DNA from: an uncultured Mollicutes bacterium
GTDB taxonomy: Bacteria; Bacillota_I; Bacilli_A; RFN20; CAG-826
NCBI GenBank assembly: GCA_900540385.1
Contig: UQFY01000011.1
Coordinates: 6,043-70,042, forward strand
DNA: 64,000 nt
Direction of reading: 5' to 3'
The stretch's first letter is position 1. Each line of letters begins with the position of its first letter. A program made the translations under genes and the position numbers. Under the pieces are notes generated by a model. The model was not told where the DNA came from. It was given only the letters and a program-made list of their open reading frames with translations, and did not search any database. Below are positions 4,335 through 54,199 of the stretch, one piece after another.

Positions 4335-4541
4335 ATGAAAAGTAAAACAAAAACAATAGGCACAGCCATCGTAGGAAAGAAAGGACAAATCGTCATTCCC
4401 TCGGAGATTCGTAACATGTTTGGAATTGAAGAAGGGGATACGCTTATCTTAATGGCGGATAAAAAAAGAGGCATTGCCATCGTTAAAGGTGACTTTGTTT
4501 CTTCTGTCTTGGAAAAAGAAGGAGTTCTTTCTAATGAGTGA
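4335..4541 (+). CDS. AbrB/MazE/SpoVT-family DNA-binding protein
   Basis: GQIVIPSEIRNMFGIEEGDTLIL is the swapped-hairpin SpoVT-AbrB signature. 68 aa. Overlaps the downstream ABC gene by 8 nt (ATGAGTGA). Confidence 0.75.
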   Translation: MKSKTKTIGTAIVGKKGQIVIPSEIRNMFGIEEGDTLILMADKKRGIAIVKGDFVSSVLEKEGVLSNE

Positions 4542-6346: not shown

Positions 6347-7393
6347 ATGAAAAAACCAAGCATCTATGACATTGCTAAGAAAGTAGGGGTATCTGCTGCT
6401 ACCGTATCCTACGTATTGAATGGCAAAGAAGGAAAGGTTTCTCTCCCAACAAAGAAAAAGATTTATCAAGCTATGGATGAACTCGGCTACACCCGTGATC
6501 ATGCGGCTGTATCTTTGTCCACCGGCAAAAGCCATTTGATTGGTCTAACCTTCCCATATCTTTCCCCATCGGAGGCTTTTTTGAATAACCCATTCTACGC
6601 TGAATTTCTTGGTTTCTTTGAAGAAACCCTTCAAAAGAATGGATACGATGTTATCTTAGGTTCCTCTATCTCGCCCTTAGATTTAGAAAAATGGTATAAA
6701 TCTCGCGCATTAGATGGAATTATGGTTCTTGGATCACTTAGCAAGGAAATCGAAAAAGAACTTCTTAAACTCAATGCGAAGGTCGCTCTTGCAGACGTAT
6801 ATGAAGAGTATGAAGCACCTTTTCCAAACATTCGTATCAATGATGAAAATGGTGAGTATCGGGCAACGAATCATTTAATTTCGCTAGGACATCATAAAAT
6901 CGGCTACTTGGGTGGCCCATCCTCTTCCATTGTTAACCGTAAACGTTATTGGGGCTATGAAAGAGCCATGATTGAACATGATTACCCTATCCCTAAGGAT
7001 TGTATCTTTCATTCTTTGACAACCTTAGAAGGCGGATACCAAATTGGTGATACGATTAAAGAAAAACTATCTAATATGACAGCAATTGTAGTGGATGCGG
7101 ATATCGTTGCAATTGGCCTTGTTCGTCGTCTTTTAGAACTTGGCGTAAAACTGCCTGAAGAACTCTCCATCATCGGCTTCGACGATATTCAGCCGGCGCA
7201 ATATATCTATCCAACTCTTAGTACGGTTCATCAAGACATTAAAGAAAAGGCGATTCTTTCTGCGAAAACGATTTTAGAAGAAATCAAAAAGCCTTCTTCA
7301 AATAAAAAAACATACGTCATGGAGCCTCGTATTGTAAGCCGTTCCTCTTGTTTGAAAATAGATGAAAAGAAAGCCCTTACAGAAATGATTTAA
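6347..7393 (+). CDS. LacI-family transcriptional regulator
   Basis: N-terminal HTH PSIYDIAKKVGVSAATVSYVLNG followed by a periplasmic-binding-fold sugar sensor domain. Confidence 0.9.
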   Translation: MKKPSIYDIAKKVGVSAATVSYVLNGKEGKVSLPTKKKIYQAMDELGYTRDHAAVSLSTGKSHLIGLTFPYLSPSEAFLNNPFYAEFLGFFEETLQKNGYDVILGSSISPLDLEKWYKSRALDGIMVLGSLSKEIEKELLKLNAKVALADVYEEYEAPFPNIRINDENGEYRATNHLISLGHHKIGYLGGPSSSIVNRKRYWGYERAMIEHDYPIPKDCIFHSLTTLEGGYQIGDTIKEKLSNMTAIVVDADIVAIGLVRRLLELGVKLPEELSIIGFDDIQPAQYIYPTLSTVHQDIKEKAILSAKTILEEIKKPSSNKKTYVMEPRIVSRSSCLKIDEKKALTEMI

Positions 7394-7408
7394 GTTAACA
7401 TTTTTCGT

Positions 7409-7428
7409 TATATCTCTATAGAGATATA
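7409..7428. terminator. Perfect 20-bp palindrome TATATCTCTATAGAGATATA: weak terminator of the regulator gene or a second operator
   Basis: Perfect dyad 16 nt after the lacI-family stop, followed by TTTT. Confidence 0.4.
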
Positions 7429-7438
7429 TTTTAAAGAA

Positions 7439-7458
7439 ATAGTTAACCGATTAACTAT
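7439..7458. promoter_or_regulatory. Candidate LacI-family operator ATAGTTAACCGATTAACTAT
   Basis: 20-bp dyad (one mismatched pair) with a central CG, as in LacI/GalR operators. Lies 55 nt upstream of the first structural gene. Confidence 0.5.
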
Positions 7459-7512
7459 TTTTCTTTTCTATTCTATTTTTTGGTGAAATAATAATGTCAG
7501 TGAGGAATAAAA

Positions 7513-12843: not shown

Positions 12844-12862
12844 GTAAAATAGTAGAAGATTT

Positions 12863-12887
12863 GGAGAGAGGGCAAAACCCTCTCTCC
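12863..12887 (+). promoter_or_regulatory. Intercistronic perfect 10-bp GC-rich stem-loop (partial terminator or mRNA stabiliser) before the SBP gene
   Basis: GGAGAGAGGG-CAAAA-CCCTCTCTCC with no long U tract. Lies between the 876-aa lipoprotein gene and the solute-binding protein gene. Confidence 0.6.
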
Positions 12888-12904
12888 TTATGGAGGTTTA
12901 ACAT

Positions 12905-14320
12905 ATGAAAAAGAAAACTTGTGCTTTAGGAATCTTATTATCGTTGTCTGGAATTCTTTTTACTTCTTGTAAAGGAGATAACGGCAATAAGATCGAGTTG
13001 AAAATCGGTTTTTGGCCAGAAGAAGCCTCCACGGCTGATGTTGAGATGTACCAAGTTTGGAAAGAAAAATTTGAAAAAGACAACCCTCAATATGTAATTA
13101 AAGGAGATCCTTATACCTATAGTACAGAGACGGTTGGCAGCAAACAAATGATGGGTCAACTCCCTGATGTATGGCAAACCTGGTTCACTGAACCTCAAAA
13201 ACTCAAAGAAAAGAACATTATTCGTCCAATCAGCAAACTTCTAAAAGAAACGGGTTGGGATGAAAAAATGGATGAAGAGATGAAACAAACTCTTACTTTT
13301 GGTGATGACATCTACGGCATTCCAAGAGATGGATATGGTCTTGGACTTTTACTTAACAAACGTATTCTTGGAGAAAATGGCATCCTACCAGAAAAGAAAA
13401 AAGACGGAAAAACGTATTATTCTTTAACAAAAGATGATGGAACGCCAGCTTATCCAACGACTTGGGAAGAAGTTTACGATGTTTCATCGACGATTGCGGA
13501 GAACGATTCTGCAAAAGGCTTCATGATGTACTCCTCCAATAAGAACGGGGGTTGGGTTTTTAGCAATATGGTTTGGAATTTTGGTGGAACCCTCCAAAAG
13601 AAAGAAGGGAATAAAGTCCTTGCGAATTTAAATTCCAAAGAGGCCGTTTCTGCCCTTGAATGGATTCAAAAGATGAAGAAAGACGATCTTCTTCAGGAAA
13701 AAATCGCTTGTGTTTATAACGATTGGTATTCAAATATCAATGAAAAAGTAGCTATGGCGGTAGTTGGAAGCGACGTTCTTCAACAAGCCGCCCTTCAAGG
13801 CCATTGTGATATGAATGATCTTGCTTTTGTTCCAATGCCAGCAGGGGATGGAATTCATCATTATTCCTTATACGGTGGAACTCCATATGTTTTCACTAAA
13901 GGCATTTCTGATGAAAAAGTTAGAGGAATTTTGAAATTTTTTGACTATATTGGTCGTTCTCCAAGTGTTTCTTCCAATAATATGGAAGCGAAAAAAGAAG
14001 GATATGAGGTTGCTAAAAAGAAAGGCCAACCAATCCTCCCGAGCATTATGCCATGGAAAAATTCAGATTATTTAACGAAAGCTAAAGAACTTGAAGATCA
14101 ATACATCAACGTCAATATGGAGGATTATTCCCCTTTCTTTAACCACATCCAAGAAAACAAACATTCCGAAGAACCGTATAATGCGCAAGAAATGTATGAG
14201 GTCTTGGATACTGCTCTTCAAAGCATTTTCAATTCTCCTGAAACAAGTGATTGCGATTCTCTTTTGACAACCGCTAACTCTTCTTTCCAAAAGACTTTAG
14301 ATAAAAACGTCAACAAATAA
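12905..14320 (+). CDS. Sugar ABC transporter solute-binding lipoprotein (family 1)
   Basis: Lipobox LFTSCKG. Size and composition typical of SBP_bac_1. Followed by MalF/MalG-type permeases. Confidence 0.85.
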   Translation: MKKKTCALGILLSLSGILFTSCKGDNGNKIELKIGFWPEEASTADVEMYQVWKEKFEKDNPQYVIKGDPYTYSTETVGSKQMMGQLPDVWQTWFTEPQKLKEKNIIRPISKLLKETGWDEKMDEEMKQTLTFGDDIYGIPRDGYGLGLLLNKRILGENGILPEKKKDGKTYYSLTKDDGTPAYPTTWEEVYDVSSTIAENDSAKGFMMYSSNKNGGWVFSNMVWNFGGTLQKKEGNKVLANLNSKEAVSALEWIQKMKKDDLLQEKIACVYNDWYSNINEKVAMAVVGSDVLQQAALQGHCDMNDLAFVPMPAGDGIHHYSLYGGTPYVFTKGISDEKVRGILKFFDYIGRSPSVSSNNMEAKKEGYEVAKKKGQPILPSIMPWKNSDYLTKAKELEDQYINVNMEDYSPFFNHIQENKHSEEPYNAQEMYEVLDTALQSIFNSPETSDCDSLLTTANSSFQKTLDKNVNK

Positions 14321-14331
14321 AAAGGCAAATT

Positions 14332-15249
14332 ATGTTTAGAAAACCTACAATTGAACGCAAAAGGAACTGGAAAAGCGTCCTAAAGAGAAATGCTTTAGGA
14401 TGGGCTTTTATGATTCTCCCGCTTCTTTTGTTTACTTTTTTTGTTTGGTATCCGATGATAAGAAATTTCATTCTCGCTTTTCAAGATGGATATGAAGACG
14501 CTTCTTTTGTTGGTTTTCAGAATTTTATCGATGTATTTGAGGATCCCACATTCCTCTCTGCATTGAAAAACACCTTTCTTTATATCGGTTTCTCCTTGCT
14601 AATCGGATATTTGGTCCCTGTTATTTTAGGTTTTCTCCTATCCGAAGTAATTCACGCAAAAGGCTTCTTCCGAGTCGTTTTATATCTTCCTTGCATGATT
14701 TCTGGAATGGCAGTGGTCTTTCTTTTTAATTCCATGTATGGTGATGGATCAACCGATCTTTTCAACGTAATCATTATGAAAATGGGTTTTCAAGCCCATC
14801 CATGGAAAGGTTCCACGAATCTCGTTATTCCTCTTATCGTCCTTGCCATGACTTGGAAAGGGGCTGGAAGTACGGCTCTTATCTATCTTTCTGCTTTTCA
14901 AAGCATTGATGATTCGATGTATGAGGCGGCACGTATTGATGGAGCAAGTTCCGTTCAAAGATTTTCACGTATTACGATTCCTGCTTTAAGAGGGACTCTT
15001 CTTACCTTGTTTGTCTTACAAATTATCTCTGTTTTTCAAGTCTTCTATGAGCCTCTTGTCATTGGTCCTAAGGGAGGACCATTGGATGCGTCGATGTCTT
15101 TGATGTTACTTAGCTATTTATACGCTTTCGAGGATTTTGAATACGGAAAGAGCGCTGCTACTGCCTTAATTTTGGGCGGAATCATCATCCTTTTCACAAT
15201 TTTATATGCCCTTTTAGACAATTATTTAAAGAAAAAGGAGGGAAAATAA
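14332..15249 (+). CDS. Carbohydrate ABC transporter permease (MalF/UgpA-like)
   Basis: EAA loop EAARIDGASSVQRFSRITIPALRG. 6 TM helices. Confidence 0.9.
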   Translation: MFRKPTIERKRNWKSVLKRNALGWAFMILPLLLFTFFVWYPMIRNFILAFQDGYEDASFVGFQNFIDVFEDPTFLSALKNTFLYIGFSLLIGYLVPVILGFLLSEVIHAKGFFRVVLYLPCMISGMAVVFLFNSMYGDGSTDLFNVIIMKMGFQAHPWKGSTNLVIPLIVLAMTWKGAGSTALIYLSAFQSIDDSMYEAARIDGASSVQRFSRITIPALRGTLLTLFVLQIISVFQVFYEPLVIGPKGGPLDASMSLMLLSYLYAFEDFEYGKSAATALILGGIIILFTILYALLDNYLKKKEGK

Positions 15250-43561: not shown

Positions 43562-43635
43562 AGGAGAATGGTTCAATGGTAGAACAGCGGTCTCCAAAAC
43601 CGTTAATGAGGGTTCGATTCCTTCTTCTCCTGCCA
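43562..43635 (+). tRNA. tRNA-Trp (CCA)
   Basis: AGGAGAA acceptor stem, D arm GTTCAATGGTAGAAC, anticodon loop CTCCAAA, T loop GGTTCGATTCC, 3' TTCTCCTGCCA. Confidence 0.9.
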
Positions 43636-43647
43636 TTTAGCAAATTC

Positions 43648-43677
43648 GCACTTTCCGCACCAAGGAGAGTGCTTTTT
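43648..43677 (+). terminator. Terminator after tRNA-Trp
   Basis: GCACTTTCC-GCACCAA-GGAGAGTGC followed by T5. Confidence 0.7.
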
Positions 43678-43766
43678 CTTTAAAAAATAGGGGATTTTGG
43701 CTCAAAAATGAGTCTTTTTCCGTTTTGTATCGCTTCAAATCGTACTAGTTAATCAGACCTGAAATT

Positions 43767-43823
43767 CTAATAGTGCGCTTTTCTACTATTAGAGCGCTTT
43801 TTCTCTATTAGTGCGCTTTTCCT
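43767..43823. repeat. Three tandem 19-bp direct repeats (CTAWTAGWGCGCTTTTYYT)
   Basis: Units at 43767-43785, 43786-43804 and 43805-43823: ctaatagtgcgcttttcta / ctattagagcgctttttct / ctattagtgcgcttttcct. Confidence 0.85.
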
Positions 43824-43859
43824 CTTGACTGGCTCTCTTTTTAGAGCGAGCAATTGATA

Positions 43860-44387
43860 ATGATGAAGAGATTCGTGTTTAGAAAAAGCTGGGACGGCTA
43901 CTTCGATTGGATAGCCAACATAAGCAAGGCGAGGAACATCATATCGTCTTATAGGGCAGCGGGCGAATGCATGAAAAAGGGCCCCGATCACATCTTTGCT
44001 TACCATGAGGCGATAAGGGTATACAACAATTACCTTGCGTTGAAATCGATGCTGAATGATAGGCAAGCCAATCATTTGGAGCTTAGGAGCAAGCACAAGA
44101 TACCCGAATGGGGATCGATATCCTCGGAAGAGCGAGACGAGATGTATGAGAAGTGGTTGCAGATTGAGTTCCCAAATGATTCCGTTCCTTTGGAATGCCA
44201 TACCGCCGAGGAGATAGGCGCCGCGATAAAAGAAGCCAGGGTAAACGATGGCAGATCTATGACCAAAGTCGCACAGTTGCTCGACATAAGTTTCAACACA
44301 TACAAATGCTATGAAAGCGGTAGGAGAATGATCCCTGCCAATACGCTTCTGATGTTAGAAAAGTTATACTGCGTCAAATTCTCTTAA
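43860..44387 (+). CDS. XRE-family HTH protein with unknown N-terminal domain (G+C-richer foreign codon usage)
   Basis: C-terminal IGAAIKEARVNDGRSMTKVAQLLDISFNTYKCYESGRRMIPANTLLMLEKLY is an HTH_3-like helix-turn-helix. Start is ambiguous (TTG 43854, ATG 43860 or 43863). Confidence 0.6.
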   Translation: MMKRFVFRKSWDGYFDWIANISKARNIISSYRAAGECMKKGPDHIFAYHEAIRVYNNYLALKSMLNDRQANHLELRSKHKIPEWGSISSEERDEMYEKWLQIEFPNDSVPLECHTAEEIGAAIKEARVNDGRSMTKVAQLLDISFNTYKCYESGRRMIPANTLLMLEKLYCVKFS

Positions 44388-44464
44388 ATTTTATAGATAG
44401 ACATATTGACATATTTAGATGACATAACTTGATTTTATGCACTTTTTTCAATATAATATAAAAT

Positions 44465-46120
44465 ATGAAACGCGGCGGAAAAAGAGAGGGTTCTGGAAGA
44501 AAACCAATTGTTGGGAAAGACATAAAGATAAAATTGCCTTTTGAAACAATTGATACTATTGAACGCCTTTATGGAGGCGATTCATTATCCGATAAAATTC
44601 GTGAATCCATTTCTTCGGGAATTAGATCAAGCTTGAATAACTATGGTGTTGTTTACACCCCATCTTTTTTATCTGAATTCGTTGCATGGCTTTGCAAAAG
44701 GTACTTTGACTCAAGTAAAGAGTCGCTTGTTATCTTTGATCCTGCTTGTGGCGAATGCTCCTTGCTTGAGGCTGCTTCAAAACAATTTACAGAAGGGAAG
44801 CGACAAATCAAACTCATAGGTAACGATGTCGACAATCATTACGTTCAAATTGCGAACAATGAAGGCATTACTTTTTTTAATTATGATGCATTGTTTCCAG
44901 ATGCCAAACTAAGACCGGAAAAGTTTTGGAAAAAGAAAACTGGCAATATTGATTTAATAATTGAAAACCCGCCTTGGTCAGGTGATAAGATCTATAAAAA
45001 AACAGAGTTACAAAAAAATAACTATGTCCTTGGAGAAGGGCAATATGATGCCTTTTCATTATTTATTGAAATGTCGCTTCGAATAGCTGATGAAGGTACG
45101 ATTTGTGCTTTTATTGTCCCTGATTCCATTTTCACTTCAGAAGACGATTCAACTCGCAAATACATCCTTAATCATTCAAACATTCTTGCTATAGCAAGAC
45201 TTGGCGAAAAACTTTTTCCGTCCGTCCATAGATCGACAGCTGTCGTTGTTTGTCAAAAAGGCAGAAAGATTGAACACAATGTCGAATGCTTTAGGCTTCT
45301 AACCGAAGATAAAAAGAACGTTTTAAATTCAAAGGATAATCTAATTAATTTGTTTGAAAAAAAGTTGCACATTGTGCCAGAAAAGAGGTTTGTTGACAGT
45401 GGTTATGTTTTTGATATTGACACAACAGACAACGATGTTTCTGTTTTATCAAAAATTAAGAAAGGATCTAGTTCTCTATCGGAAAAATTCACATTTGGGA
45501 GAGGGGTTGAAATCTCAAAAAAGGGAAACCAAGTCAAGTGCCCACATTGTGGAATAATTCAGCCGTTCTTAGGTTCTTCTAAAACTAAAAAATGTCAACG
45601 ATGCGGCGAAGAATTTGATGTTCAAGACAACATTTTTGAAATGATGATTGATAATAAAAAAAGCGGTTTTTCACCAATTTTGGTTGGAGAGAATATTCAA
45701 CGTTATTACATTAAAGGGCACAAATATGTACTTCCAAAAATGGAAGGCATTAACTACAAAGAGGATGATCTCTACAAGGGAGCAAAGATTTTAGTTAGGA
45801 AAACTGGACTAGGTATAAAAGCATCTTATGATGGCGGCGATCATGAAACATTTGATTCTAAACAAGGGTATCGCTATGTGGAGGCTCACCATTTGATTCC
45901 AATGAAAGCACAAAAGGACTTTCCAAATATAAATCTCGATAGAACTGAAAATATCGTTGCTCTTTGCCCGACGTGTCATCGAGCGGTTCATCTTGGGACA
46001 AAGGAAGAAAAAATGAAACATCTTAAACCACTATATGACGAAAGAATGCCTTTGTTGCAACAGATTTATCCTGATTTTAGTTTGACGTTTGAAGATTTAA
46101 TTAGGGAATACTATCGATAG
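44465..46120 (+). CDS. RHH-like N-terminus + gamma-class N6-adenine DNA methyltransferase (Eco57I/TaqI-like) + Zn-ribbon + C-terminal HNH nuclease, single polypeptide
   Basis: GGKREGSGRKP...IKLPFETIDTIERL (RHH-like). VYTP; motif I FDPACGECS; motif IV ENPPWSG. CPHCG...CQRCG. HNH region VEAHHLIPM...NIVALCPTCHRAVH. Confidence 0.8.
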   Translation: MKRGGKREGSGRKPIVGKDIKIKLPFETIDTIERLYGGDSLSDKIRESISSGIRSSLNNYGVVYTPSFLSEFVAWLCKRYFDSSKESLVIFDPACGECSLLEAASKQFTEGKRQIKLIGNDVDNHYVQIANNEGITFFNYDALFPDAKLRPEKFWKKKTGNIDLIIENPPWSGDKIYKKTELQKNNYVLGEGQYDAFSLFIEMSLRIADEGTICAFIVPDSIFTSEDDSTRKYILNHSNILAIARLGEKLFPSVHRSTAVVVCQKGRKIEHNVECFRLLTEDKKNVLNSKDNLINLFEKKLHIVPEKRFVDSGYVFDIDTTDNDVSVLSKIKKGSSSLSEKFTFGRGVEISKKGNQVKCPHCGIIQPFLGSSKTKKCQRCGEEFDVQDNIFEMMIDNKKSGFSPILVGENIQRYYIKGHKYVLPKMEGINYKEDDLYKGAKILVRKTGLGIKASYDGGDHETFDSKQGYRYVEAHHLIPMKAQKDFPNINLDRTENIVALCPTCHRAVHLGTKEEKMKHLKPLYDERMPLLQQIYPDFSLTFEDLIREYYR

Positions 46121-46221
46121 ACATCAAACAACAAGATTGATACTCCATATGGAGTATTTTTCTTTTTTGCAATTTTTTTAATTTTTTTCCGGACAAAAGA
46201 CCATTTTGTGAAAAGGTATAT

Positions 46222-46608
46222 ATGGGAGGAACTCTCGGAAAGGAAATCAAAACGATGAATGAAGAAGAAAGAAAAATGAGGATCTTCGCGATCCATAAAG
46301 ACAAGAAGGGCGAGCAAGCGATGGTGGACATCACCGATTTGGTCGAGGCAAGGAAAATCGAGTTGGAGAAGCAGAAGGAGTTGGAGAGGCCGATCCGCTA
46401 CTGCAGGAACTGTGGGAAGAGGATGGAGTACGGCTATTTCTATTGCTCCAAGGAATGCTGCGACGAGTATAGGAAGAAAAACAGGAAGAAGGAGAAGGAT
46501 GAGGAAAGAGTTTGCCCGGTATGCGGAAAGACTTTCATGGTAGAGAAATGGAGGAAGCAAGTCTGCTGCTCCAAATCATGCGCGAACAGGCATAAGAAAA
46601 TGGGGTAG
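46222..46608 (+). CDS. Small basic protein with two FCS/TRASH-like zinc-ribbon motifs
   Basis: CRNCGKRMEYGYFYCSKECC and CPVCGKTF...VCCSKSC. AAG/GAG/AGG-rich codon usage unlike the host genes. The antisense ORF 46111-46560 is a mirror artefact. Confidence 0.55.
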   Translation: MGGTLGKEIKTMNEEERKMRIFAIHKDKKGEQAMVDITDLVEARKIELEKQKELERPIRYCRNCGKRMEYGYFYCSKECCDEYRKKNRKKEKDEERVCPVCGKTFMVEKWRKQVCCSKSCANRHKKMG

Positions 46609-46663
46609 TGTCATTTTTGAAAAAGAGTGTCATTTCCAAAAAAGAGTGTCATTGTATCATTTC
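46607..46663. repeat. Three direct AGTGTCATT-containing repeats with 19-bp period
   Basis: AGTGTCATT starts at 46607, 46626 and 46645. Units 1 and 2 also share the AAAAAG tail. Confidence 0.8.
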
Positions 46664-46667
46664 TATA

Positions 46668-48341
46668 CGAGGCGGGACCCCGGACAAAAAGTTGGACCAT
46701 CCGAATGGTTACATAAATGTATACTAATGATCAAAAAATACATGCAATTGAGATTGTTAAGAAGTGCAAAGGTATTATTAATAATTGTTAGGGTATCCTG
46801 ATAGCAGAGATACTTTAAAGCTGTGGTATAAAAATTTCCAAGAAGATAATAATAAAATCACAAAAACTCCGCGTTATAGCGATAAGGAAATTGATAAGGC
46901 AGTTTCCTATTATTTGGAGTGCAAAAACATTCAAAAAACTATTGATGATTTAGGCTACCCAGACTCAAGAATGACGTTATGGAGATGGATTAAATCACAG
47001 GACATCAATATTTCTAATAAACGTGGTAGAGTTTCGTCGCTTGACGAAGAGGCAAAATCATCAATCATCTTAGAATATCTAAATTCCGATGAAACTATGC
47101 TAAAATTCTCATTAGAAAAAGGCATTGCTACCTCTACATTAAAAGGATGGCTTGATGCCTATAATCCAAAAAAGGAGGAAGTCTCTATGCCGAAAGAAGA
47201 AAGCAATAATGTCGATGAAACAGTTATTCCTCCTCGCAGTGATCAAGAAGAAATAGACGAACTTAAAAAGGAAATTGCTAAATTAAAAGCGGAAAAGATA
47301 GAAGCAAATCGTAAGACCAAAGAAGCTGAAGCAGAGCTCAAATTAGCAAAAGCCAAATTAGCGGAAACTCAACTAGAATATGACATCTTAGAAAAGGCGG
47401 CAGAACCATTAAAAAAAGTTAATGGCATTAATATCAAAACTCTTAAAAACAAGGAGAAGGCCATCGTTATTAATGCCTTAAGAAGTAAGTATAAGTTAGC
47501 AGAGCTGCTTAAATCTCTAGAGATGGCCAAATCATCATATGAATATCAAGTAAAAGCTCTTAACCATGATAAATATCAAGAGTTAAGACCTATAATCAAA
47601 CAAATATTCGATGATAGTTATCAAGCATATGGTTCAGAAAGAATATATGGTGAATTAAAAAATCAAGGAATCACAGTTTCTGAAAAAGTTATTAGAAGAT
47701 TAATGAAAGAAGAAAATATCCATCCATTTGTTCCTAGAATGAAGAAATATTCTTCTTATCAAGGAGAAATATCTCCAGAAGTTACTGATTTATATAAGCA
47801 CGACTTTAAAGCGGATGGACCATATAAGAAGCTAGTAACAGATATTACTGAATTCTCACTTAGAGATGGTAAAGTATATCTATCTCCAATGATTGATTTA
47901 TACGATGGATGTCAATTAATTGGAAGATAGGATATTCTCCAAATAAAGAATTAACTAACTCCATGTTAATAGAACTACATAACATCATTCCTAGCGATGC
48001 TAAACCCATCATCCATAGTGACAGAGGTTGCCATTATCGAATCCCTGATTGGATTAATCTCATGGAAGAATATGGTTATACAAGATCAATGTCCAGAAAG
48101 GGATGTTCCCCGGATAATGCAGCGTGTGAAGGATTCTTCGGAATAATGAAAAGAGAATTCTTCCATAATCATGATTGGGGTAATGCGACAAGGGAAGAAT
48201 TCATAAAAGAATTAGACAAGTACTTAACTTGGTTTAAAATAAAGAGAATAAAGGAAAGGTTAGGATATTTAAGTCCAACAGAATATCGTTCTAGAGCAAG
48301 TCTCTAAAATGGTACGAAAAAATGTCCGGACTCCCGGCTTG
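46668..48341 (+). mobile_element. IS3-family insertion sequence (degenerate copy)
   Basis: Imperfect terminal inverted repeats share the core GGGA..CCGGACA (left about 46668-46686, right about 48323-48341, roughly 15 of 19 matches). Encodes HTH/leucine-zipper OrfA-like and rve (DDE) OrfB-like sequence. Confidence 0.65.
46717..48307 (+). pseudogene. IS3-family transposase, reading frame broken at about 46786 and about 47908
   Basis: MYTNDQKIHAIEIVKK... (ATG 46717) stops at TAG and continues in another frame as LGYPDSRDTL. Coiled coil EIDELKKEIAKLKAEK. rve motifs HSDRGCHY and SMSRKGCSPDNAACEGFFG lie in a third segment after IDLYDG. An A7 run sits at 47411-47417. Confidence 0.7.
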
Positions 48342-48357
48342 CCATATTGAAACAACA

Positions 48358-48388
48358 GGATTGATACCAAAAATATCAGTCCTTTTTT
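48358..48388 (+). terminator. Orphan terminator-like hairpin right of the IS
   Basis: GGATTGATA-CCAAAAA-TATCAGTCC followed by T6. No intact gene lies upstream of it. Confidence 0.45.
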
Positions 48389-48553
48389 CATTTTATAGGG
48401 CTGTTTCGCTTATTTTAGACATAAATCGCTTATTATCAGCGTCAAGTTTATATAGGGCCTCATCTTATTTTTTGATACATGGAGGAACGAAAAAATATAA
48501 ATTGCTATAAATCATATTAGAAGTAAAAATAAATAGTGATAGTAGGAGAAAAT

Positions 48554-49021
48554 ATGGAACAAAAGAATTTGATGGTAAGAAAAGCGACCCCAAAGGACAT
48601 GGGCCTTCTTTATGAAATGATTAATGGTTTGGCAACATATGAGAAACGTCCAGAAGACATGACAGGGTCAATTAAGATGCTGAAATATTTTCTTTTCGAA
48701 AAGAAAATTGCCACTGCGGTTATAGCTGAAATAGATAATAAACCTATCGGTTATGCCATTTATTATCCAACGTTTGCTTCTTTTGCAGCCAAAATGAATG
48801 CCTATATAGAAGACCTATTCATAAAGCTCGAATATCGAGGCAAAGGCTTTGGAAAAGAGCTCTTTCACAAACTTTTAGAAATGATAAAAGAAGAGGGCTA
48901 TTCGAAATTAGAATGGAGTTGCCTAGATTGGAATACTCCTTCCATCGAATTCTATAAAAAGCTTGGTGCAAAAGAAGAAACAGGAAGAGTCTATTTTGAA
49001 TACGATCCGAAGAACGATTGA
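48554..49021 (+). CDS. GNAT-family N-acetyltransferase
   Basis: The acetyl-CoA-binding region YRGKGFGKELF has the Q/RxxGxG/A-like motif. AGGAG RBS before ATG 48554. Confidence 0.85.
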   Translation: MEQKNLMVRKATPKDMGLLYEMINGLATYEKRPEDMTGSIKMLKYFLFEKKIATAVIAEIDNKPIGYAIYYPTFASFAAKMNAYIEDLFIKLEYRGKGFGKELFHKLLEMIKEEGYSKLEWSCLDWNTPSIEFYKKLGAKEETGRVYFEYDPKND

Positions 49022-49329
49022 AATTGGCCCATTGCCACTTACCAAGATGGGAAAGGCCTATCTTTCTTAAATGGGATATATTTATCTAAACGTTGCTAGA
49101 GACATAAACCTGTTTTCCTCGGGGGGAAAAGTAACTTACATAAAAAACTAAAGTGGTAACACATTAAAGGAGAAAGCCCATCCTATAAAACCTTCTTCAA
49201 AGGGCGAATATTGTCGCATTGTTTGATATGTAGGAGAAAAATTTGAAAAGTTCTTATTACCTCTTAGTTATCTTTTCTTTCGCTAATTCCCCAAAATGAT
49301 ACAATCTAATAAAGTTTTGGGGCGTTTAT

Positions 49330-50442
49330 ATGGAAAAAAGATTCTTAACAGCCGTATTGGTTACGACATTTTTGCTTAATGGATGCTTTACGGACAACGG
49401 AATTTACTCTTCTTTTCAAGATGTTACAGGCGTTACGATTTCAGACATTAATGAATTTAAGATTAGTGAAAATGTAACTGCTTCCTTTGCCTGGCAATAC
49501 CAATATGATGACTATACGTTTTTAAATACGAAATATGTGAAAGTTAATTTCAATATTAAAAACGAGCTACTTGATAAACCCTTATCCGATGGTGGAGGGG
49601 CAATATGTTTACATTTCATGACCGACGTTCTTTTAGAAACGTATCCTGTTCAACATTACTCCTTCGATATGTATATTGGTCAAAAAGACCATTATTTATA
49701 TTATGGTTCGACTATGGAAAACTCCGTTGAAGCCTATCGTTCTTTTAGCAAAATACCCGACAAATACATAACCATGATAAAGGATAGAACAAATAAAGAT
49801 GGGGAATATCGTCTTAAAGTAAGTGGTGATGTAACGATCTCACCAGATTTACCTAAAACGGCCCATTATCCTGAGAATCATCCGTTCCGTTTCAAAGTAG
49901 GGCATGTTCTTGACGCTACACTTTATGTCTACTTAAATAACGAATTACTTAAGCCCTTTAAGGAAGATCCAACTCTTGATGGCTATTCTTACTATGAATT
50001 TAAAATGCCCGCTTTAGATTCGGCCTTAGCAATTACCACGAATCGTTTTTATCTAAATAAAACATATTCTTTCGTAGAGGTGTTTCCTTATCTACGTTCC
50101 GTCACGAAAGAATCTTTAAAAGGGGTGCGTATTGAAACTGGTTATTTTGGTGTTAATCCAGAAGGCAGGAAACCGACTATCAAATATAGCGAAGATAAGA
50201 GAGACATCGAATACAATCTCGACATCCTAAACAATCAACCCCTTCTTAAATATGATGAAAATCAACCGGTAGATGGTGGAAATTATCGGAAAGTAACCTA
50301 CATCCTTTTTAACGAGAGTGAATACGAGATTGAAATTGAAAACAACCATGTCGTTTATAGAGACTTCTCCTCTTATCAAATGTTTCGATTTGCTTCTACC
50401 ATAACGAAAATGCCTGATATTTTTTATCCTCAAAGCAATTAA
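49330..50442 (+). CDS. Hypothetical lipoprotein
   Basis: Signal peptide with lipobox FLLNGCFTD. 370 aa. Confidence 0.65.
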   Translation: MEKRFLTAVLVTTFLLNGCFTDNGIYSSFQDVTGVTISDINEFKISENVTASFAWQYQYDDYTFLNTKYVKVNFNIKNELLDKPLSDGGGAICLHFMTDVLLETYPVQHYSFDMYIGQKDHYLYYGSTMENSVEAYRSFSKIPDKYITMIKDRTNKDGEYRLKVSGDVTISPDLPKTAHYPENHPFRFKVGHVLDATLYVYLNNELLKPFKEDPTLDGYSYYEFKMPALDSALAITTNRFYLNKTYSFVEVFPYLRSVTKESLKGVRIETGYFGVNPEGRKPTIKYSEDKRDIEYNLDILNNQPLLKYDENQPVDGGNYRKVTYILFNESEYEIEIENNHVVYRDFSSYQMFRFASTITKMPDIFYPQSN

Positions 50443-50598
50443 ACTTGCTATCCTAAAACCATCATCCTTAGAAAGAAATGAGTTCTATTTATCAAACAAA
50501 TAACTGAGAATTATAATAAAGAAGACAAAAACACACGCTTTCTTTTATGGAAATATATTCGTATATCAAAGAAAGCCAAGATAATAAAAGGGGGATTT

Positions 50599-50793
50599 AT
50601 GATTCAAAAACTTACGTTAAAGGATGCACATTATCACATCATTGGTTATGTAGAAATCAAAGAAAATGGTGATAAAACTTTGAAAGATTCTCATTACCAC
50701 ATCAAAGGCTATTACATTGCAAGTAACGATGTCACAAAGGATGAGCATTATCATATCGTTGCTCATGGGGATGTTTTAACCTCCCTCTTATAA
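50599..50793 (+). CDS. 64-aa protein with three KD.HYHI repeats
   Basis: LKDAHYHIIGY / LKDSHYHIKGY / TKDEHYHIVAH spaced about 20 aa apart. GGGGG RBS-like sequence upstream. Confidence 0.45.
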   Translation: MIQKLTLKDAHYHIIGYVEIKENGDKTLKDSHYHIKGYYIASNDVTKDEHYHIVAHGDVLTSLL

Positions 50794-50869
50794 TCTTTTT
50801 AAACAAAGCTATTCATTCCTTTGAGTGAGGAGAGAATTGCTTGGTGAATTATTCTATTAAAATTGAGAT

Positions 50870-51265
50870 ATGAACGAAGAACTTGAGCAATACATCGCTA
50901 AACACCAAAAGAACCGTGAAAAATCGGAATCTTTTGTAGACTATTTATACGAATTGATGGAAAAACATCAGATAGAAAATCCTTCTGATGTTTATAAGAA
51001 AGCCTTCCTTTCTCGCCAACTATACTCTTCGATCATTTCCGCTAAATCTAGCCCATCATTAAACACCTGTATCAAACTCGCTTTAGCCATGCATTTAGAC
51101 AATCATGAATGCAAATATCTTTTGAAAAAGGCTGGATATACTCTTTCTTCCTCTAGCAGATTTTCTTTAACCATCCGTTTTGCGATAGAAAACCATATTT
51201 ATGACATCTATGAGGTTAATAAACTTCTTATAGATGCAGGATACGAAGATTCTTTGCTCCTTTAA
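50870..51265 (+). CDS. Putative HTH-type regulator (short Clostridia-type family)
   Basis: DVYKKAFLSRQLYSSIISAKSSPSLNTCIKLALAMHLDNHECKYLLKKAGYTLS resembles the XRE-like single-domain proteins common in Firmicutes. Confidence 0.45.
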   Translation: MNEELEQYIAKHQKNREKSESFVDYLYELMEKHQIENPSDVYKKAFLSRQLYSSIISAKSSPSLNTCIKLALAMHLDNHECKYLLKKAGYTLSSSSRFSLTIRFAIENHIYDIYEVNKLLIDAGYEDSLLL

Positions 51266-51340
51266 GAAATGTCAAATCCCATTTGACCATTTATCCTCTC
51301 TTTTTCTTTATCCTTTTCTTGCATTGGGAGGAAAAAGAAA

Positions 51341-51955
51341 ATGCAAGAAATCATCGAACATTATAGAGCCTTCAACCTTGCTAAAAAGATTATGGAAAAA
51401 GCTCATAAAAACCAAACAAGGGTGAGTGGAGAACCTTATGAATTACACCCTATTAGATGTTTTAATAACTACGCGGCTTTCATTGGATATCTGGATGAAC
51501 CCGAAACAAAATGCTATCGGTTAGAAGAAGATGGAATCCCTTTCTTTGGCGTAGTGGAAGTGGCTCTTCTTCATGATGTTATTGAAGATACGCCTTTTAC
51601 TATCGAAAAGATTGAAAAACTCTTCCAAGAGGAGGGATTATCTAGCTATTTCCATAAACGTATCAAGGATGCCTTAGAAAGAATCACCCATGATAAAACG
51701 ATGGATTACCCATCTTATATTGAAATATGCATGGGTAATCCTATCTCTGCTCTTTGTAAAATGTTGGATCTTCAAGATAACCTCACCGTTTTATCTTTGT
51801 CCAAACTTGATTCAAAAAATTATAAACGTGCCGAGAACTATCTAAAATATATCTATCAAATCAACAATGAATATCACTTCATTGAAAGAACCCATAAATA
51901 TCGCCAAGAACATTACCAAAAAAAGAGTAGAAACAAACGATCTTCTTCCATATAA
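51341..51955 (+). CDS. HD-domain protein, RelA/SpoT-type (p)ppGpp hydrolase-like (small alarmone hydrolase candidate)
   Basis: KAHKNQTRVSGEPYELHPIRC ... VALLHDVIEDT are the HD_4 signature residues. Confidence 0.7.
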   Translation: MQEIIEHYRAFNLAKKIMEKAHKNQTRVSGEPYELHPIRCFNNYAAFIGYLDEPETKCYRLEEDGIPFFGVVEVALLHDVIEDTPFTIEKIEKLFQEEGLSSYFHKRIKDALERITHDKTMDYPSYIEICMGNPISALCKMLDLQDNLTVLSLSKLDSKNYKRAENYLKYIYQINNEYHFIERTHKYRQEHYQKKSRNKRSSSI

Positions 51956-51956
51956 T

Positions 51957-52083
51957 TCTTCTGCCATAAAGAGAAGACGAGGGACAGGCCCTACGACTCT
52001 TCAGCAACCTGCATTCGTAAGGTGCTAAATCCTGAACGATGGGAAATAAACAATTATCTCTCATCGTGAAGATGGGAGTTTTT
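51957..52083 (+). promoter_or_regulatory. SAM-I (S-box) riboswitch with intrinsic terminator
   Basis: Conserved cores AGAGAAGACGAGGGACAGGCCC, CAGCAACC and GGTGCTAAATCC. P1 is CCAT/ATGG. Terminator CTCTCATC-GTGAA-GATGGGAG plus T5 (52058-52083). The 3' P1 strand GATGGGAA can alternatively pair with CTCTCATC as an antiterminator. Confidence 0.85.
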
Positions 52084-52111
52084 CTTTCTCTTGTGGCTAG
52101 GAGAAAGAAAA

Positions 52112-52771
52112 ATGAAAATCTTATTACATCTTCCTCACGTCTCATTAGACGTACCAAATTATTTTTATAAGGGGCTAATCATCCCTAAGCCTCTTTTCCG
52201 GAAATACAATCTAGAAATGAGTGATTTAGGGGTGGAATATCTTTTGAAAGATCTTCCAGGAGTAAAGATAATACCTCCTTATTCGCGCTTATTTTGTGAT
52301 GTAGAACGTTTTCGTGACGATAAGAAAGAAAGGATGGCTCAATATGGGGAGGGTCTTTTATATACAAAGATGTATGATGGCATTCTATTTCATAAGCACG
52401 ATGAAATCTATCGAAAGAAAGTCCTTACTTATTACGATACGTACCATCAAAAACTAGATGAAATTACCAAAGGCCTCCTTTCTTTTGACGATGAACTCTT
52501 AATACTAGATTGCCATTCTTTCTCTGATAAGATGGCCTCGTATTTCTTTAAACCTCCTTTTCCAGATATCTGTATCGGAATAGAAAAAGACTTCTTTGAT
52601 CAAGAAATATTGCATCGCATCATTGAAGCAATCAAAAAGAGGGGATACACCTATCAAATAAACTATCCCTATCAAGGAAGTCTTGTCCCAAACTGTATCT
52701 ATAATAAGAAAGTTATTTATAAAAAAGTCGTATCCATCATGTTAGAAATCAACAAACGTATCTATCTTTAA
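52112..52771 (+). CDS. N-formylglutamate amidohydrolase (FGase) family protein
   Basis: MKILLHLPHVSLDVP, SRLFCDVERFRDD and LDCHSF are typical of Firmicute FGase-family proteins. GGAGAAAG RBS. Confidence 0.7.
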   Translation: MKILLHLPHVSLDVPNYFYKGLIIPKPLFRKYNLEMSDLGVEYLLKDLPGVKIIPPYSRLFCDVERFRDDKKERMAQYGEGLLYTKMYDGILFHKHDEIYRKKVLTYYDTYHQKLDEITKGLLSFDDELLILDCHSFSDKMASYFFKPPFPDICIGIEKDFFDQEILHRIIEAIKKRGYTYQINYPYQGSLVPNCIYNKKVIYKKVVSIMLEINKRIYL

Positions 52772-52780
52772 TTCCTAATG

Positions 52781-52821
52781 AACTGTTACAAATTCAAAAT
52801 TATTTTAAGTTTGTAACAGGT
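52781..52821. repeat. Direct repeat DR-E copy 1 (41 bp, contains a 10-bp inverted repeat)
   Basis: AACTGTTACAAATTCAAAATTATTTTAAGTTTGTAACAGGT is identical to 54128-54168. Internal arms are CTGTTACAAA/TTTGTAACAG with a 17-nt spacer. Confidence 0.95.
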
Positions 52822-52905
52822 CGTGATAAAATGAAATTGTCTCTTAAGAAGGAAAAAATCTTGTTCTCATATTTCCAAAAGCGTTAAAAAAAGAAAGGAT
52901 GCCTT

Positions 52906-54129
52906 ATGTATATTCTAAGAAAACAATATCTAGAAGAAATTAGAAAATATTATGATTCCAACTTGATTAAGGTTTTAACAGGCATTAGACGTGTGGGCAA
53001 GAGCGTTCTTTTAGAACAAATACGTGAAGAATTGAAAAAAGATCGCAATTTGGATGAGGAACATATTATTTGCGTCAATTTCGAAGATATTTCTTTTTCT
53101 TCCATTAAAAATGCCTATCAACTAAATGACTATATTTCTGCTTGCATTAAAGATGAGAGGAAATACTATATTTTTCTCGATGAAATCCAACATGTAAAAG
53201 AATTTGAAAAAGTTCTTGCCTCCTTGAAGGCAACGAAAAACGTTTCTATTTTTGTTACTGGCAGCAATTCAAAGCTTCTTTCTGGAAGACTGGCTTCCCT
53301 TTTAGTCGGACGTTGCAAGGAATTCAAAATTCAGCCATTCACATACAAAGAATTCTTGGACTTTTATCAAGAAAATCAGCTTCCTCTCCCTACAAAGCCT
53401 CTCAATAATTACATCCGCTATGGGGGAATGCCACAAAGATTGGATTATTTTTTAGAAAAAGACATCGTTGCTTATTTGTCTGATCTTTTTAATGGCATCG
53501 TGGAGAAAGATATTTGTTCAAGTAAATCGAGAATCGACAAAGAAACATTCTTGAACATTGCCAAATATATCATCTCCAACTCTGCAAAGGATTTTTCTCC
53601 TGATAACATCGTTGATTATTACAACATGAACAATTCCGATAAAATACAACGCGTCACGCTTTATCGCTATTTAGAAAAGATGGAGCACGCTTGCCTTATT
53701 CAGCGAGTGAAACGTTATGATATCGCTTCAAAAAGAACTCTAAAATCGATAGAAAAGCGATTCGCCATGGACACAGGGCTTATTTTAGCGTGTAGTAATT
53801 CAAATCGAATTTTTCCTTCTAGAGCACTAGAAAACCTTGTTTATAACGAACTTATTTATAGAGGATATGAAGTAAAAATAGGAAAGACATATAAAGGTGA
53901 AATTGATTTCGTCACGATGAAAGAAAACAAAAAATGTTTCATTCAAGTCGCTTATCTTCTTTCTGATGAAGAAACCATCATCAGGGAATTCTCTCCTTAT
54001 AATTCTGTACGTGATCCCTCTCCGAAATACGTCATGAGTTTGGATGAGTTTGATATGTCACAAAACGGAATAACACATATCAATATCGAAGATTGGCTGC
54101 TTGGAAAAGTAGACTTGTTCCTTTCTTAA
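52906..54129 (+). CDS. AAA_14 ATPase with DUF4143 domain
   Basis: Walker A GIRRVGKSV, Walker B IFLDEIQHV. VTGSNSKLLSG, then C-terminal EIDFV...FIQV, a restriction-endonuclease-like core. Confidence 0.85.
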   Translation: MYILRKQYLEEIRKYYDSNLIKVLTGIRRVGKSVLLEQIREELKKDRNLDEEHIICVNFEDISFSSIKNAYQLNDYISACIKDERKYYIFLDEIQHVKEFEKVLASLKATKNVSIFVTGSNSKLLSGRLASLLVGRCKEFKIQPFTYKEFLDFYQENQLPLPTKPLNNYIRYGGMPQRLDYFLEKDIVAYLSDLFNGIVEKDICSSKSRIDKETFLNIAKYIISNSAKDFSPDNIVDYYNMNNSDKIQRVTLYRYLEKMEHACLIQRVKRYDIASKRTLKSIEKRFAMDTGLILACSNSNRIFPSRALENLVYNELIYRGYEVKIGKTYKGEIDFVTMKENKKCFIQVAYLLSDEETIIREFSPYNSVRDPSPKYVMSLDEFDMSQNGITHINIEDWLLGKVDLFLS

Positions 54130-54168
54130 CTGTTACAAATTCAAAATTATTTTAAGTTTGTAACAGGT
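54128..54168. repeat. Direct repeat DR-E copy 2
   Basis: Perfect 41-bp copy. Overlaps the TAA stop of the AAA_14 gene. Confidence 0.95.
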
Positions 54169-54199
54169 GACCATCATTTTGAAGAATTATAATAAGCAT

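Follow-up and report, generated by a model that had tools for sequence, protein, structure and literature searches.

The question raised by this locus is how a small group of genes without any recombinase came to lie directly behind a tRNA-Trp gene, between two arrays of three direct repeats that share a 19-bp period. The stretch analyzed here (64,000 nt of contig UQFY01000011.1 from an uncultured Mollicutes bacterium, hereafter the window) had been described in an initial annotation as holding, at this position, an integrase-less foreign module bounded by the arrays. Comparison with related contigs upholds the foreign origin but moves the limits: the element spans 43636–48339 (4,704 bp), with an insertion sequence (IS) of the IS3 family inside its right end, and is probably the fossil of a small integrative tRNA-Trp element, organized in the manner of a cassette chromosome, that carried exchangeable anti-phage cargo and has lost its recombinases. 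The features on which this reading depends are as follows (forward strand, +; others are listed where the text needs them).

43562–43635 (+), tRNA-Trp (CCA) gene (ARAGORN; Rfam tRNA, 68.5 bits), its last bases forming part of the left core TGCCAT
43766–43825 (+), array 1, three TATTAGnGCGCTTTT units (Tandem Repeats Finder: period 19, 3.2 copies, score 85)
43860–44387 (+), XRE-family backbone gene, 175 aa from ATG 43860 (177 aa from the alternative TTG 43854)
44465–46120 (+), chimeric open reading frame (ORF) of 551 aa, residues 1–458 of a gamma-class N6-adenine methyltransferase (MTase; M1) joined in frame to residues 307–402 of an HNH nuclease
46222–46608 (+), zinc-ribbon backbone gene, a 128-aa ORF whose homologues align from ATG 46255, with two CxxCGKxF...CSxxC ribbons
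46607–46666 (+), array 2, three units of an A-run plus rGTGTCAy at 19-bp period (Tandem Repeats Finder: 46607–46653, score 73)
46674–48335 (+), degenerate IS3-family IS of 1,662 bp, between array 2 and the attachment core
48340–48345 (+), right attachment core TGCCAT, the second copy, beyond the IS
48346–48390 (+), native 3′ flank of tRNA-Trp, now displaced, with its terminator, ATTGAAACAACAGGATTGATACC...GTCCTTTTTT (hairpin 48357–48383 by terminator scan)

The evidence for a foreign, site-specific insertion comes from both junctions. A scan of genome collections with YqeY recovered 15 related genomes (L024–L038, uncultured Bacilli/Mollicutes-type metagenome-assembled genomes, MAGs); 13 of the loci include the tRNA-Trp gene, and all 13 keep the order trkA–trkH–yqeY–tRNA-Trp. 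Wherever a related locus can be aligned across the tRNA, its similarity to the window ends at 43635–43646, and two strains of the same species (L002 and L006, 98.7–99.3% identical upstream) diverge exactly at the tRNA 3′ end (43635–43639). The related genomes and these two strains are element-free, so that the site is polymorphic for presence and absence of the element; the possibility that the segment is conserved here in all relatives, with host-like composition, does not describe the locus. On the left, TGCCAT at 43631–43636 is the tRNA end plus one base. On the right, the sequence behind the second TGCCAT resembles that which follows tRNA-Trp in the element-free relatives L026, L027, and L038, whose native type of terminator (ATTGAAnnn...TTGATAC...TTTTT) occurs in the window only at 48346–48390. 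Because homology stops at the tRNA 3′ end and native-type flank follows the second TGCCAT, comparison identifies the segment as foreign and inserted site-specifically at tRNA-Trp, as had been proposed; attL and attR share a crossover core and the target is restored on one side. A long duplicate of the tRNA 3′ end (14–25 nt, mismatches allowed) was not found, the real core being 6 bp. The arrays lie subterminally and do not bound the module, since foreign DNA runs on to the TGCCAT at 48340–48345.

The IS3 element had been seen as abutting the right array, which holds insofar as it starts 7 bp beyond the conserved array 2 block; however, it lies inside the element and not outside it. It has inverted repeats of its own (GGGACCCCGGACA and GGGAGTCCGGACA) and a GGC target duplication (46671–46673 and 48336–48338). 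NCBIfam matches its IS3 transposase in two ORFs (178 bits, profile positions 54–244; 128 bits, 247–369), Pfam agrees, and the gene is broken by an upstream stop and by a frameshift inside the rve domain; the copy belongs to the IS3 family and is probably inactive. If the IS is taken out together with one copy of GGC, TTGCCA in the window comes to lie 28 bp after the third GTGTCA, against 27 bp in three elements from other organisms (L051, L058, and L061). Array 2 as the left end of the IS was considered and rejected, array 2 occurring without the IS in those three elements.

Both arrays are present as first described and lie far beyond chance. They are the two best-scoring tandem repeats of the window, the TAGWGCGC of array 1 starting at 43771, 43790, and 43809, and the AGTGTCATT of array 2 at 46607, 46626, and 46645 (GTGTCA at 46608, 46627, and 46646); they are also its only sites at which an 8-mer recurs three times at equal 12–30 bp spacing, and an equally spaced triple of this kind appeared in 0 of 300 simulated windows (first-order Markov). 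Three ORFs lie between them, encoding a 175/177-aa HTH_3 protein, the 551-aa MTase–HNH product, and the 128-aa twin zinc-ribbon protein; domain and homology searches of this interval found no integrase, replication gene, or intact transposase. The compositional contrast that had been reported also holds. Against a reference G+C content at third codon positions (GC3) of 0.352 ± 0.035 (maximum 0.42; 38 window ORFs of at least 200 aa), the XRE gene (GC 0.455, GC3 0.60) and the zinc-ribbon gene (GC 0.475, GC3 0.705) are G+C-rich, and AGG supplies 7 of 12 and 9 of 12 of their arginine codons, respectively (0–2 in host genes), with AAG and GAG enriched in both; the central ORF is AT-rich (GC3 0.30). 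Backbone homologues in other elements are themselves AT-rich (GC3 0.16–0.31), and the G+C-rich backbone of the window, set against these homologues and against the cargo, suggests that backbone and cargo have different histories. The proposed search of plasmid and phage collections produced zero matches (blastn, 43640–46700), an 85-nt query covering array 2 and the attachment site gave only one 20-nt chance match among plasmid and phage records, and a permissive-threshold Rfam scan returned nothing beyond the tRNA.

The backbone of the element is recognizable in L051, L058, and L061, and the shared order is tRNA-Trp, terminator, array 1, XRE gene, cargo, zinc-ribbon gene, array 2, and TTGCCA. 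The arrays are accordingly not independent of these genes, as they recur with XRE and zinc-ribbon homologues in other organisms. In L051 (GC 31%), the tRNA-Trp 3′ end is followed by a hairpin, two copies of AAATGACACT, and repeats with GCGC that recur every 19 bp; the genes are, in order, a 175-aa XRE protein, AbiU2, an m5C MTase, a MutH-like protein, the zinc-ribbon protein, and GmrSD, and the right end reads GGTGTCAC-N12-AGTGTCAC-N12-GGTGTCATTGTATCATTTCTAT, six bases, TTGCCATC. L058 has both ends as in L051 within 2.7 kb, enclosing the XRE gene, the zinc-ribbon gene, a lipoprotein gene, and a recombinase remnant. L061, retrieved from IMG/VR by an exact match to the 21-mer that closes array 2, continues from its zinc-ribbon gene into a gene for a SHOCT protein, a first large serine recombinase (LSR1, 432 aa), a second (LSR2, one internal stop), array 2, and TTGCCA; its cargo, a 729-aa helix-turn-helix (HTH) protein and a 251-aa protein, resembles genes downstream of tRNA-Trp in L002 and L006.

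What this shared backbone says about the two arrays differs between the ends, and we take the left end first.

43648–43682 (+), terminator hairpin and T-run (hairpin 43648–43672; terminator scan), element-borne and ending the present tRNA-Trp transcript
43699–43714 (+), a further small hairpin that includes AAAAATGAGTC, a degenerate version of the two AAAATGACAC boxes in L051 and L058
43825–43848 (+), candidate XRE promoter region, with TTGACT at 43825–43830, and a fourth operator-like unit, TTTTTAGAGCG (its TAGAGCG at 43842–43848)

The terminator hairpin is found in L051 and L058 with compensatory changes in its stem and is absent from the element-free strains and species; this region is the P′ side of the attachment site. 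Alignment of the three left ends (window, L051, and L058) reveals an AAAATGA box (with TGACAC twice in L051 and L058 and a degenerate TGAGTC in the window) and, ahead of the XRE genes, TATTAGnGC units that recur three times at a step of 19 bp; CTTGA (−35-like) and TTTTTAGAG are invariant columns, the latter being the fourth unit, which precedes the XRE start codon. With respect to the array 2 core, the AAAATGACAC boxes of L051 and L058 stand in inverse orientation. The XRE protein has a C-terminal HTH_3 domain (Pfam, 6.5e-6) behind a ~120-aa N-terminal domain of unknown fold, and is 53% identical to its L051 counterpart (E 6e-66) and 48% identical to that of L058; its recognition helix, NTYKCYE, and the operator core TATTAGnGC are both conserved across the three elements. 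Array 1 is absent from the left flank of L002, where the first gene encodes a different HTH protein. Because the array travels with the XRE gene, straddles its promoter, and is accompanied by a conserved recognition helix, we lean toward reading array 1, together with the fourth unit in the promoter/leader, as the operator set of the XRE protein; the promoter itself is a putative assignment, as a sigma-70 scan made no call there. Such an arrangement recalls XRE/CI operators (lambda OR; the asymmetric direct repeats of Bacillus phage phi105), in which three regularly spaced sites lie just upstream of, and overlap, the promoter of the repressor gene, with one more site downstream.

The XRE homologue occurs without any restriction–modification (R-M) system in L058 and beside AbiU2 in L051. 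A role as the C protein of an R-M system was rejected, the protein having no PADLOC control-protein match, a long N-terminal domain, and homologues that are cargo-free or adjacent to AbiU2. An AGTG common to both window arrays was likewise set aside, since it is not conserved in array 1 of L051. Exact look-up of the 177-aa ORF returned no record, a viral scan with the XRE alignment gave nothing, and a single-sequence AlphaFold2 model was unusable (predicted local distance difference test, pLDDT, 46.5). In a word-indexed search both backbone proteins looked like orphans; the XRE protein matched only itself, and the 53%-identical gene of L051 was missed there and reached through its zinc-ribbon neighbor.

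At the right end, it was the zinc-ribbon protein that led to the recombinases. An exhaustive HMMER search gave about 250 relatives, mostly phage HNH_3/NinG nucleases but also a few proteins of 120 aa in which a sigma-r4-like HTH at the N-terminus is combined with two ribbon units; a subsequent profile search placed homologues on readable contigs. (In the phage-type HNH_3/NinG proteins, P0003–P0151 and hundreds in all, the CxxCGKxF...CSxxC unit stands in 3–11 tandem copies behind the nuclease domain.) A profile search of the PDB with the family returned only generic zinc-finger matches, and a viral scan with its alignment only L061 again. Zinc-ribbon homologues lie directly upstream of large serine recombinase genes in seven further contexts (L056, L057, L061, L073, L074/75, the truncated L052–55, and Streptococcus pyogenes phage phi29961). 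Tandem serine recombinase pairs immediately follow homologues of 21–51% identity in L056, L057, L073, and L074/75, and in phi29961 the homologue, annotated there as sigma-like, precedes a recombinase fragment. The full domain set of a large serine recombinase (Resolvase, Recombinase, and Zn_ribbon_recom) is found in L056, L057, and L061, and in L058 a remnant persists just ahead of array 2, matching the C-terminal 71 aa of recombinase 2 at 75% identity (E 7e-27).

Alignment of the four right ends (window, L051, L058, and L061) shows three GTGTCA cores at 19-bp period, each preceded by an A-run. The array closes with the 21-mer GTGTCATTGTATCATTTCTAT (46646–46666), identical in all four elements; the 12-nt spacers differ freely, while cores, phasing, 21-mer, and distance to TTGCCA are invariant to within 1 bp. 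Conserved cores and phase with free spacers, in elements whose proteins are only 35–53% identical, have the signature of protein-binding sites. In L061 array 2 follows the stop codon of the second recombinase, and in L058 it follows the remnant of the recombinase C-terminus. Because array 2 goes with the zinc-ribbon/SHOCT/recombinase module and abuts the crossover core, it may comprise accessory sites of that module, a reading that we hold to be about evenly balanced. Of the options raised in the initial annotation, operators fit array 1 (as a reading of the conserved left end), and array 2 is read instead as recombination accessory sites; the notion that both arrays are ends for a single transposase is contradicted by their different motifs and different gene associations.

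In the window, the stop codon of the zinc-ribbon gene runs into the first array 2 unit, which indicates that about 3 kb (the SHOCT gene and both recombinase genes, as in L061) is missing. A tblastn search with both L056 recombinases found nothing in the window at E ≤ 1e-4. The segment is integrase-less as stated, but this is not its original state, since intact relatives carry SHOCT and two large serine recombinase genes; from these comparisons the window copy is a derivative of a serine-recombinase element and not a functional member.

A second loss affects the cargo, the features of which are listed here.

44400–44457 (+), three GACATA boxes and the best regional promoter match, TTGATT-17-TATAAT (44429–44457), before the cargo operon
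45832–45839 (+), deletion junction with the 8-bp microhomology TGGCGGCG
46126–46167 (+), cargo-operon terminator (hairpin 46139–46158), preceded by the 18-nt AAACAACAAGATTGATAC

The central ORF had been taken for a single MTase–HNH gene. Pfam assigns to it N6_Mtase/Eco57I, a partial TaqI_C (positions 2–57 of 118), and HNH. Among metagenome contigs encoding exactly the same YqeY, zinc-ribbon, or GNAT proteins, an intact three-gene locus is present in L001, L010–L012, and L015–L021, with genes for a 590-aa gamma-class adenine MTase (M1), a 350-aa D12-class MTase (M2), and a 402-aa HNH protein, classed as type II MTases and HNH nuclease (PADLOC, Pfam). The window is collinear with L001 except that 12751–15108 of the latter (2,358 bp) is lost, M2 included, and the same junction occurs at 100% identity in contigs of sample ERR414354 (e.g., L022). 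Comparison across strains establishes the central ORF as a deletion chimera of an M1–M2–HNH R-M operon and not a natural fusion. A complete type II R-M system (MTases with target-recognition domain plus separate nuclease) is encoded in the L001-type strains and not in the window, which by this comparison holds a disarmed operon. The intact cargo resembles type II R-M systems with two adenine MTases and an HNH nuclease, an Eco57I/TaqI_C-type gamma MTase, a D12 (Dam-class) MTase, and HNH forming one operon, whereas the window keeps only the M1(1–458)::HNH(307–402) chimera.

The cargo has also been replaced in other strains. One sample (L004 and L014) keeps 43636–43827, array 1 included, has other sequence inside, and rejoins the window at ~46164; in L023 a different double D12 MTase is joined to the zinc-ribbon/array 2 block from ~46137. 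Cargo exchange is visible within the population in these alignments, and the breakpoints indicate that the cargo-operon terminator marks the right edge of an exchangeable slot. The 18-nt AAACAACAAGATTGATAC (AAACAACARGATTGATAC) lies just after the HNH stop codon (46126–46143) and a second time at 48350–48367, where the native flank of tRNA-Trp now lies (a within-window E of 0.4), and the alternative-cargo breakpoints adjoin its first copy; it could be an internal pseudo-attachment site, a tandem-cassette boundary, or chance. As a separate observation, the GACATA boxes, GACATATTGACATATTTAGATGACATAAC, extend up to the −35 of TTGATT-17-TATAAT and may be a control site of the cargo operon.

Taken together, these comparisons suggest the following history. 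The family would insert into the last bases of tRNA-Trp, leaving the 6-bp TGCCAT common to both junctions, with a backbone in the order tRNA terminator, array 1 and promoter, XRE gene, cargo slot, HTH/zinc-ribbon gene, SHOCT gene, two tandem large serine recombinase genes, array 2, 21-mer, and core. Array 2 would provide phased sites, bound most likely by the zinc-ribbon protein, the SHOCT protein, or the recombinases, to control synapsis or directionality. Three lesions have followed: deletion of SHOCT and both recombinase genes, by which the zinc-ribbon stop now abuts array 2; insertion of the IS 7 bp past array 2, which separates the right arm from the crossover core; and the in-frame 2,358-bp deletion that made the M1–M2–HNH cargo into one ORF. 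With these the copy would be both immobilized and disarmed, and both arrays would be relics in it. The deletions and the history of the IS are evident from comparison with other contigs. A more specific version, in which the arrays form a complex attachment site for the serine recombinases, the HTH/zinc-ribbon and/or SHOCT proteins bind the rGTGTCAy sites and thereby govern directionality or synapsis, and array-bearing cassettes without recombinases are moved in trans, strikes us as possible but on the doubtful side; one arm has three rGTGTCAy sites, and in L051 and L058 the opposite arm has copies in inverted orientation.

A number of points weigh against this history. No single contig has both ends together with both recombinases, the model being assembled from L051, L058, and L061, and three of the four elements with a right end are without recombinases, so that the integrase-less state might be a stable lifestyle and not decay. 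The shared core is only 6 bp; the contigs compared showed no circular form, no excision product, and no exact empty site from the same strain background, and the native flank of L002 and L006 is a diverged allele. The family-typical N-terminal HTH is poorly conserved in the window zinc-ribbon protein, a variant (L004, variant B) keeps array 1 while the sequence after it differs from the XRE gene, which loosens the strict tie between the two, and the pairing of proteins with arrays is putative. Large serine recombinases are known to use simple 40–50-bp sites with no accessory arrays and rarely target tRNA genes, from which array 2 may serve regulation rather than recombination.

This last point leads to the main rival for array 2, a purely transcriptional role as operators or terminator-proximal control for the zinc-ribbon–SHOCT–recombinase operon or for read-through at the junction. 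The array indeed stands directly after the operon's last gene, a weak promoter-like match overlaps it (46633–46660), and the family protein has a sigma-70 region-4-like HTH, with the sigma-like annotation in phi29961; yet the third unit is fused to the identical 21-mer at a fixed 27–28 bp from the core, which fits a recombination site better, and inverted copies of the core motif lie at the opposite end of L051 and L058. We regard a purely transcriptional array 2 as unlikely, and place at the same level the idea that the cassette is integrase-less by design, its arrays being arm or accessory sites for a recombinase supplied in trans by an autonomous relative. The window, L051, and L058 are independently recombinase-less, each with both ends, 21-mer, and core, and recombinase-less staphylococcal cassettes have been described that neighboring Ccr recombinases move (PMC11470126). 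Against design stands the recombinase remnant of L058, a sign that this copy descends from an autonomous element; moreover, in the window the right arm and the core are parted by the IS, the 64 kb contain no recombinase gene, and a tandem arrangement with an autonomous element was not seen.

The remaining explanations would detach the arrays from serine recombinases altogether. A tRNA 3′ end, a short core, and phased arm repeats make up the classical layout of a tyrosine integrase, and the locus, with its 6–7-bp identical core and direct repeats on both arms, could on that ground be the lambda-like attP of a lost integrase with the serine recombinases as unrelated passengers; a distant zinc-ribbon homologue in Clostridium innocuum phage NatCom_9291 does lie upstream of an excisionase and a Tn916-type tyrosine integrase. 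No such integrase or remnant occurs in any array-carrying member, the gene beside array 2 in L061 (and as a remnant in L058) is a serine recombinase, and the array cores differ whereas arm sites of one integrase share a consensus, all of which makes this explanation improbable. Iterons of a captured plasmid or phage replicon are more improbable still: the 19-bp period and the two gene-flanking arrays recall the P1 and F plasmid origins, and unrelated phage contigs carry iteron-like arrays of GTGTCAT type, but the window segment, L051, L058, and L061 have no Rep, primase, or helicase gene or domain, similarity to plasmid or phage records is lacking, the arrays sit at the element ends beside the core, and their surroundings showed neither a DnaA box nor an AT-rich origin. 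Last and least credible is a DDE transposon of Tn7 or Mu type whose ends hold multiple transposase-binding sites, with the neighboring IS3 perhaps supplying the enzyme. Repeats in several copies just inside either end, and an IS beside array 2, would suit it; the arrays, however, are direct-oriented with different cores and the ends coincide with the tRNA attachment core, while the IS3 transposase, the sole DDE gene in the family, belongs to an IS that has its own inverted repeats and GGC duplication and is absent from the array 2-keeping L051, L058, and L061, by which the version with the IS3 is refuted. The iteron and transposase-end options of the initial annotation consequently find no support.

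We therefore return to the decayed serine-recombinase element, for which the closest known parallel is provided by the staphylococcal and enterococcal cassette chromosomes (SCC and ECC). These cassettes combine paired large serine recombinases, insertion at the 3′ end of a conserved gene, variable defense cargo, and recombinase-less forms, with the recombinases as the only conserved genes (PMC6222049; PMC11470126). The family described here likewise has two adjacent large serine recombinase genes of unequal length (432 and 527 aa in L056), like ccrAB of SCC and ccrABEnt of ECC, inserts at the 3′ end of a conserved housekeeping gene, carries variable cargo including R-M and defense genes, and includes recombinase-less cassettes. 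Its recombinases are not Ccr orthologues: the best NCBIfam match of both is CcrB, at 152.6 and 136.1 bits, far short of the 900 required; for CcrA the values are 72 and 67 bits (cut-off 700). Unlike SCC and ECC, it targets tRNA-Trp downstream of trkH–yqeY and not rlmH (orfX), and its backbone adds XRE, HTH/zinc-ribbon, and SHOCT genes. To our knowledge, phased triple repeats beside both junctions have no counterpart in SCC or ECC. In being bounded by an attachment core, without its own recombinase, and a deletion derivative of an autonomous element, the window copy resembles the decayed or cis-mobilizable islands found at tRNA genes, such as elements of the CIME type and pseudo-SCC cassettes; it differs in that descent is documented (the L058 remnant and the L061 pair) and that the right arm is further broken by the IS. 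The phased ~20-bp direct repeats beside the crossover, with spacing kept and spacers varying, are also reminiscent of lambda-type attP (arm Int sites; the Xis sites X1/X1.5/X2), but there the enzymes are tyrosine integrases, whereas the recombinases linked to the arrays here are serine enzymes, which do not as a rule rely on accessory sites.

In practical terms, it would be a mistake to annotate the MTase–HNH protein as naturally bifunctional, and a puzzling integrase-less module becomes a readable history of insertion at tRNA-Trp, cargo swap, two deletions, and an IS. The conserved module (HTH/zinc-ribbon protein, often SHOCT, and two large serine recombinases) spans several uncultured Firmicutes lineages, has phased repeats beside the crossover in two of three clades, and at tRNA-Trp carries restriction, abortive infection (Abi), and GmrSD-type defense genes. 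If the interpretation is right, it would represent an undescribed family of tRNA-Trp defense-cassette carriers in uncultured gut Bacilli, offering a handle for finding defense cargo in these poorly studied gut bacteria, and new control logic for a class of recombinase thought to need two simple 40–50-bp sites and a protein-binding directionality factor. Serine integrases are valued for genome engineering owing to their simple sites, and a natural family in which accessory arrays and an upstream gene for a DNA-binding protein are both conserved would be a testable case of extra control. The finding in the window is a fossil and of moderate interest; the arrays beside a serine-recombinase site are the part worth experiment. 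A literature search of limited coverage found no paper mentioning both SHOCT and serine recombinases.

Several further observations concern possible members of the family and repeats of similar appearance. In L052–L055 (~6569–7765), the first serine recombinase breaks off after ~250 aa and continues in frame as a YmdB-like C-terminus; a tRNA-Trp follows 8 bp further on, which makes this another decayed member beside tRNA-Trp. L074 has four direct repeats, AAAAGTGAACCC (4530–4633; spacing 21, 22, and 18 bp), plus one inverted copy after the stop codon and terminator of its distant serine recombinase pair, the position that array 2 takes in L061; its sister contig L075 ceases to match just past that terminator. 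With a degenerate pattern of three units that allowed for both arrays, viral sequences yielded 0 matches and metagenomes 3 (L048–L050), the latter being unrelated satellite-type repeats, and viral scans for the doubled TGACAC box and the tripled GTGTCAy gave L062–L072, iteron-like arrays without XRE, zinc-ribbon, or recombinase homologues; both sets were rejected.

Downstream of tRNA-Trp, the whole stretch 43636–54173 is variable within the genus. In L002 (10547–14872) and L006, a native-type terminator is followed by genes for a 718-aa HTH protein, a 239-aa protein, and a DEDDh/RNase_T exonuclease, and then by remnants of IS3 type. Of these genes, the first two have homologues in the cargo of L061, the element with recombinases, and a tRNA-like fragment, GGTTCGAACTCACGA, lies between the terminator and those genes. 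The closest species have other defense-type genes after tRNA-Trp (L024, 10547–19101; L025, 10551–12688), which encode a DUF2971/PDC-S31 protein and one of 666 aa that contains domains 2 and 3 of EF-Tu; the GNAT gene of the window then follows in L024 and its SIR2-family gene in L025. The titles on seven of the MAGs with trkH–yqeY–tRNA-Trp (L024, L026, L027, L029, L030, L033, and L034: Escherichia coli, Alistipes, Prevotella, Faecalibacterium, Bacteroides, Gemmiger, and Slackia) point to mislabeled bins. Toward the far end of the variable stretch, a 41-bp direct repeat, AACTGTTACAAATTCAAAATTATTTTAAGTTTGTAACAGGT (itself a hairpin), at 52781–52821 and 54128–54168 brackets an AAA_14/DUF4143 ATPase gene (52906–54129), and several metagenome contigs stop at 52810, which suggests an assembly break or a variable insertion.

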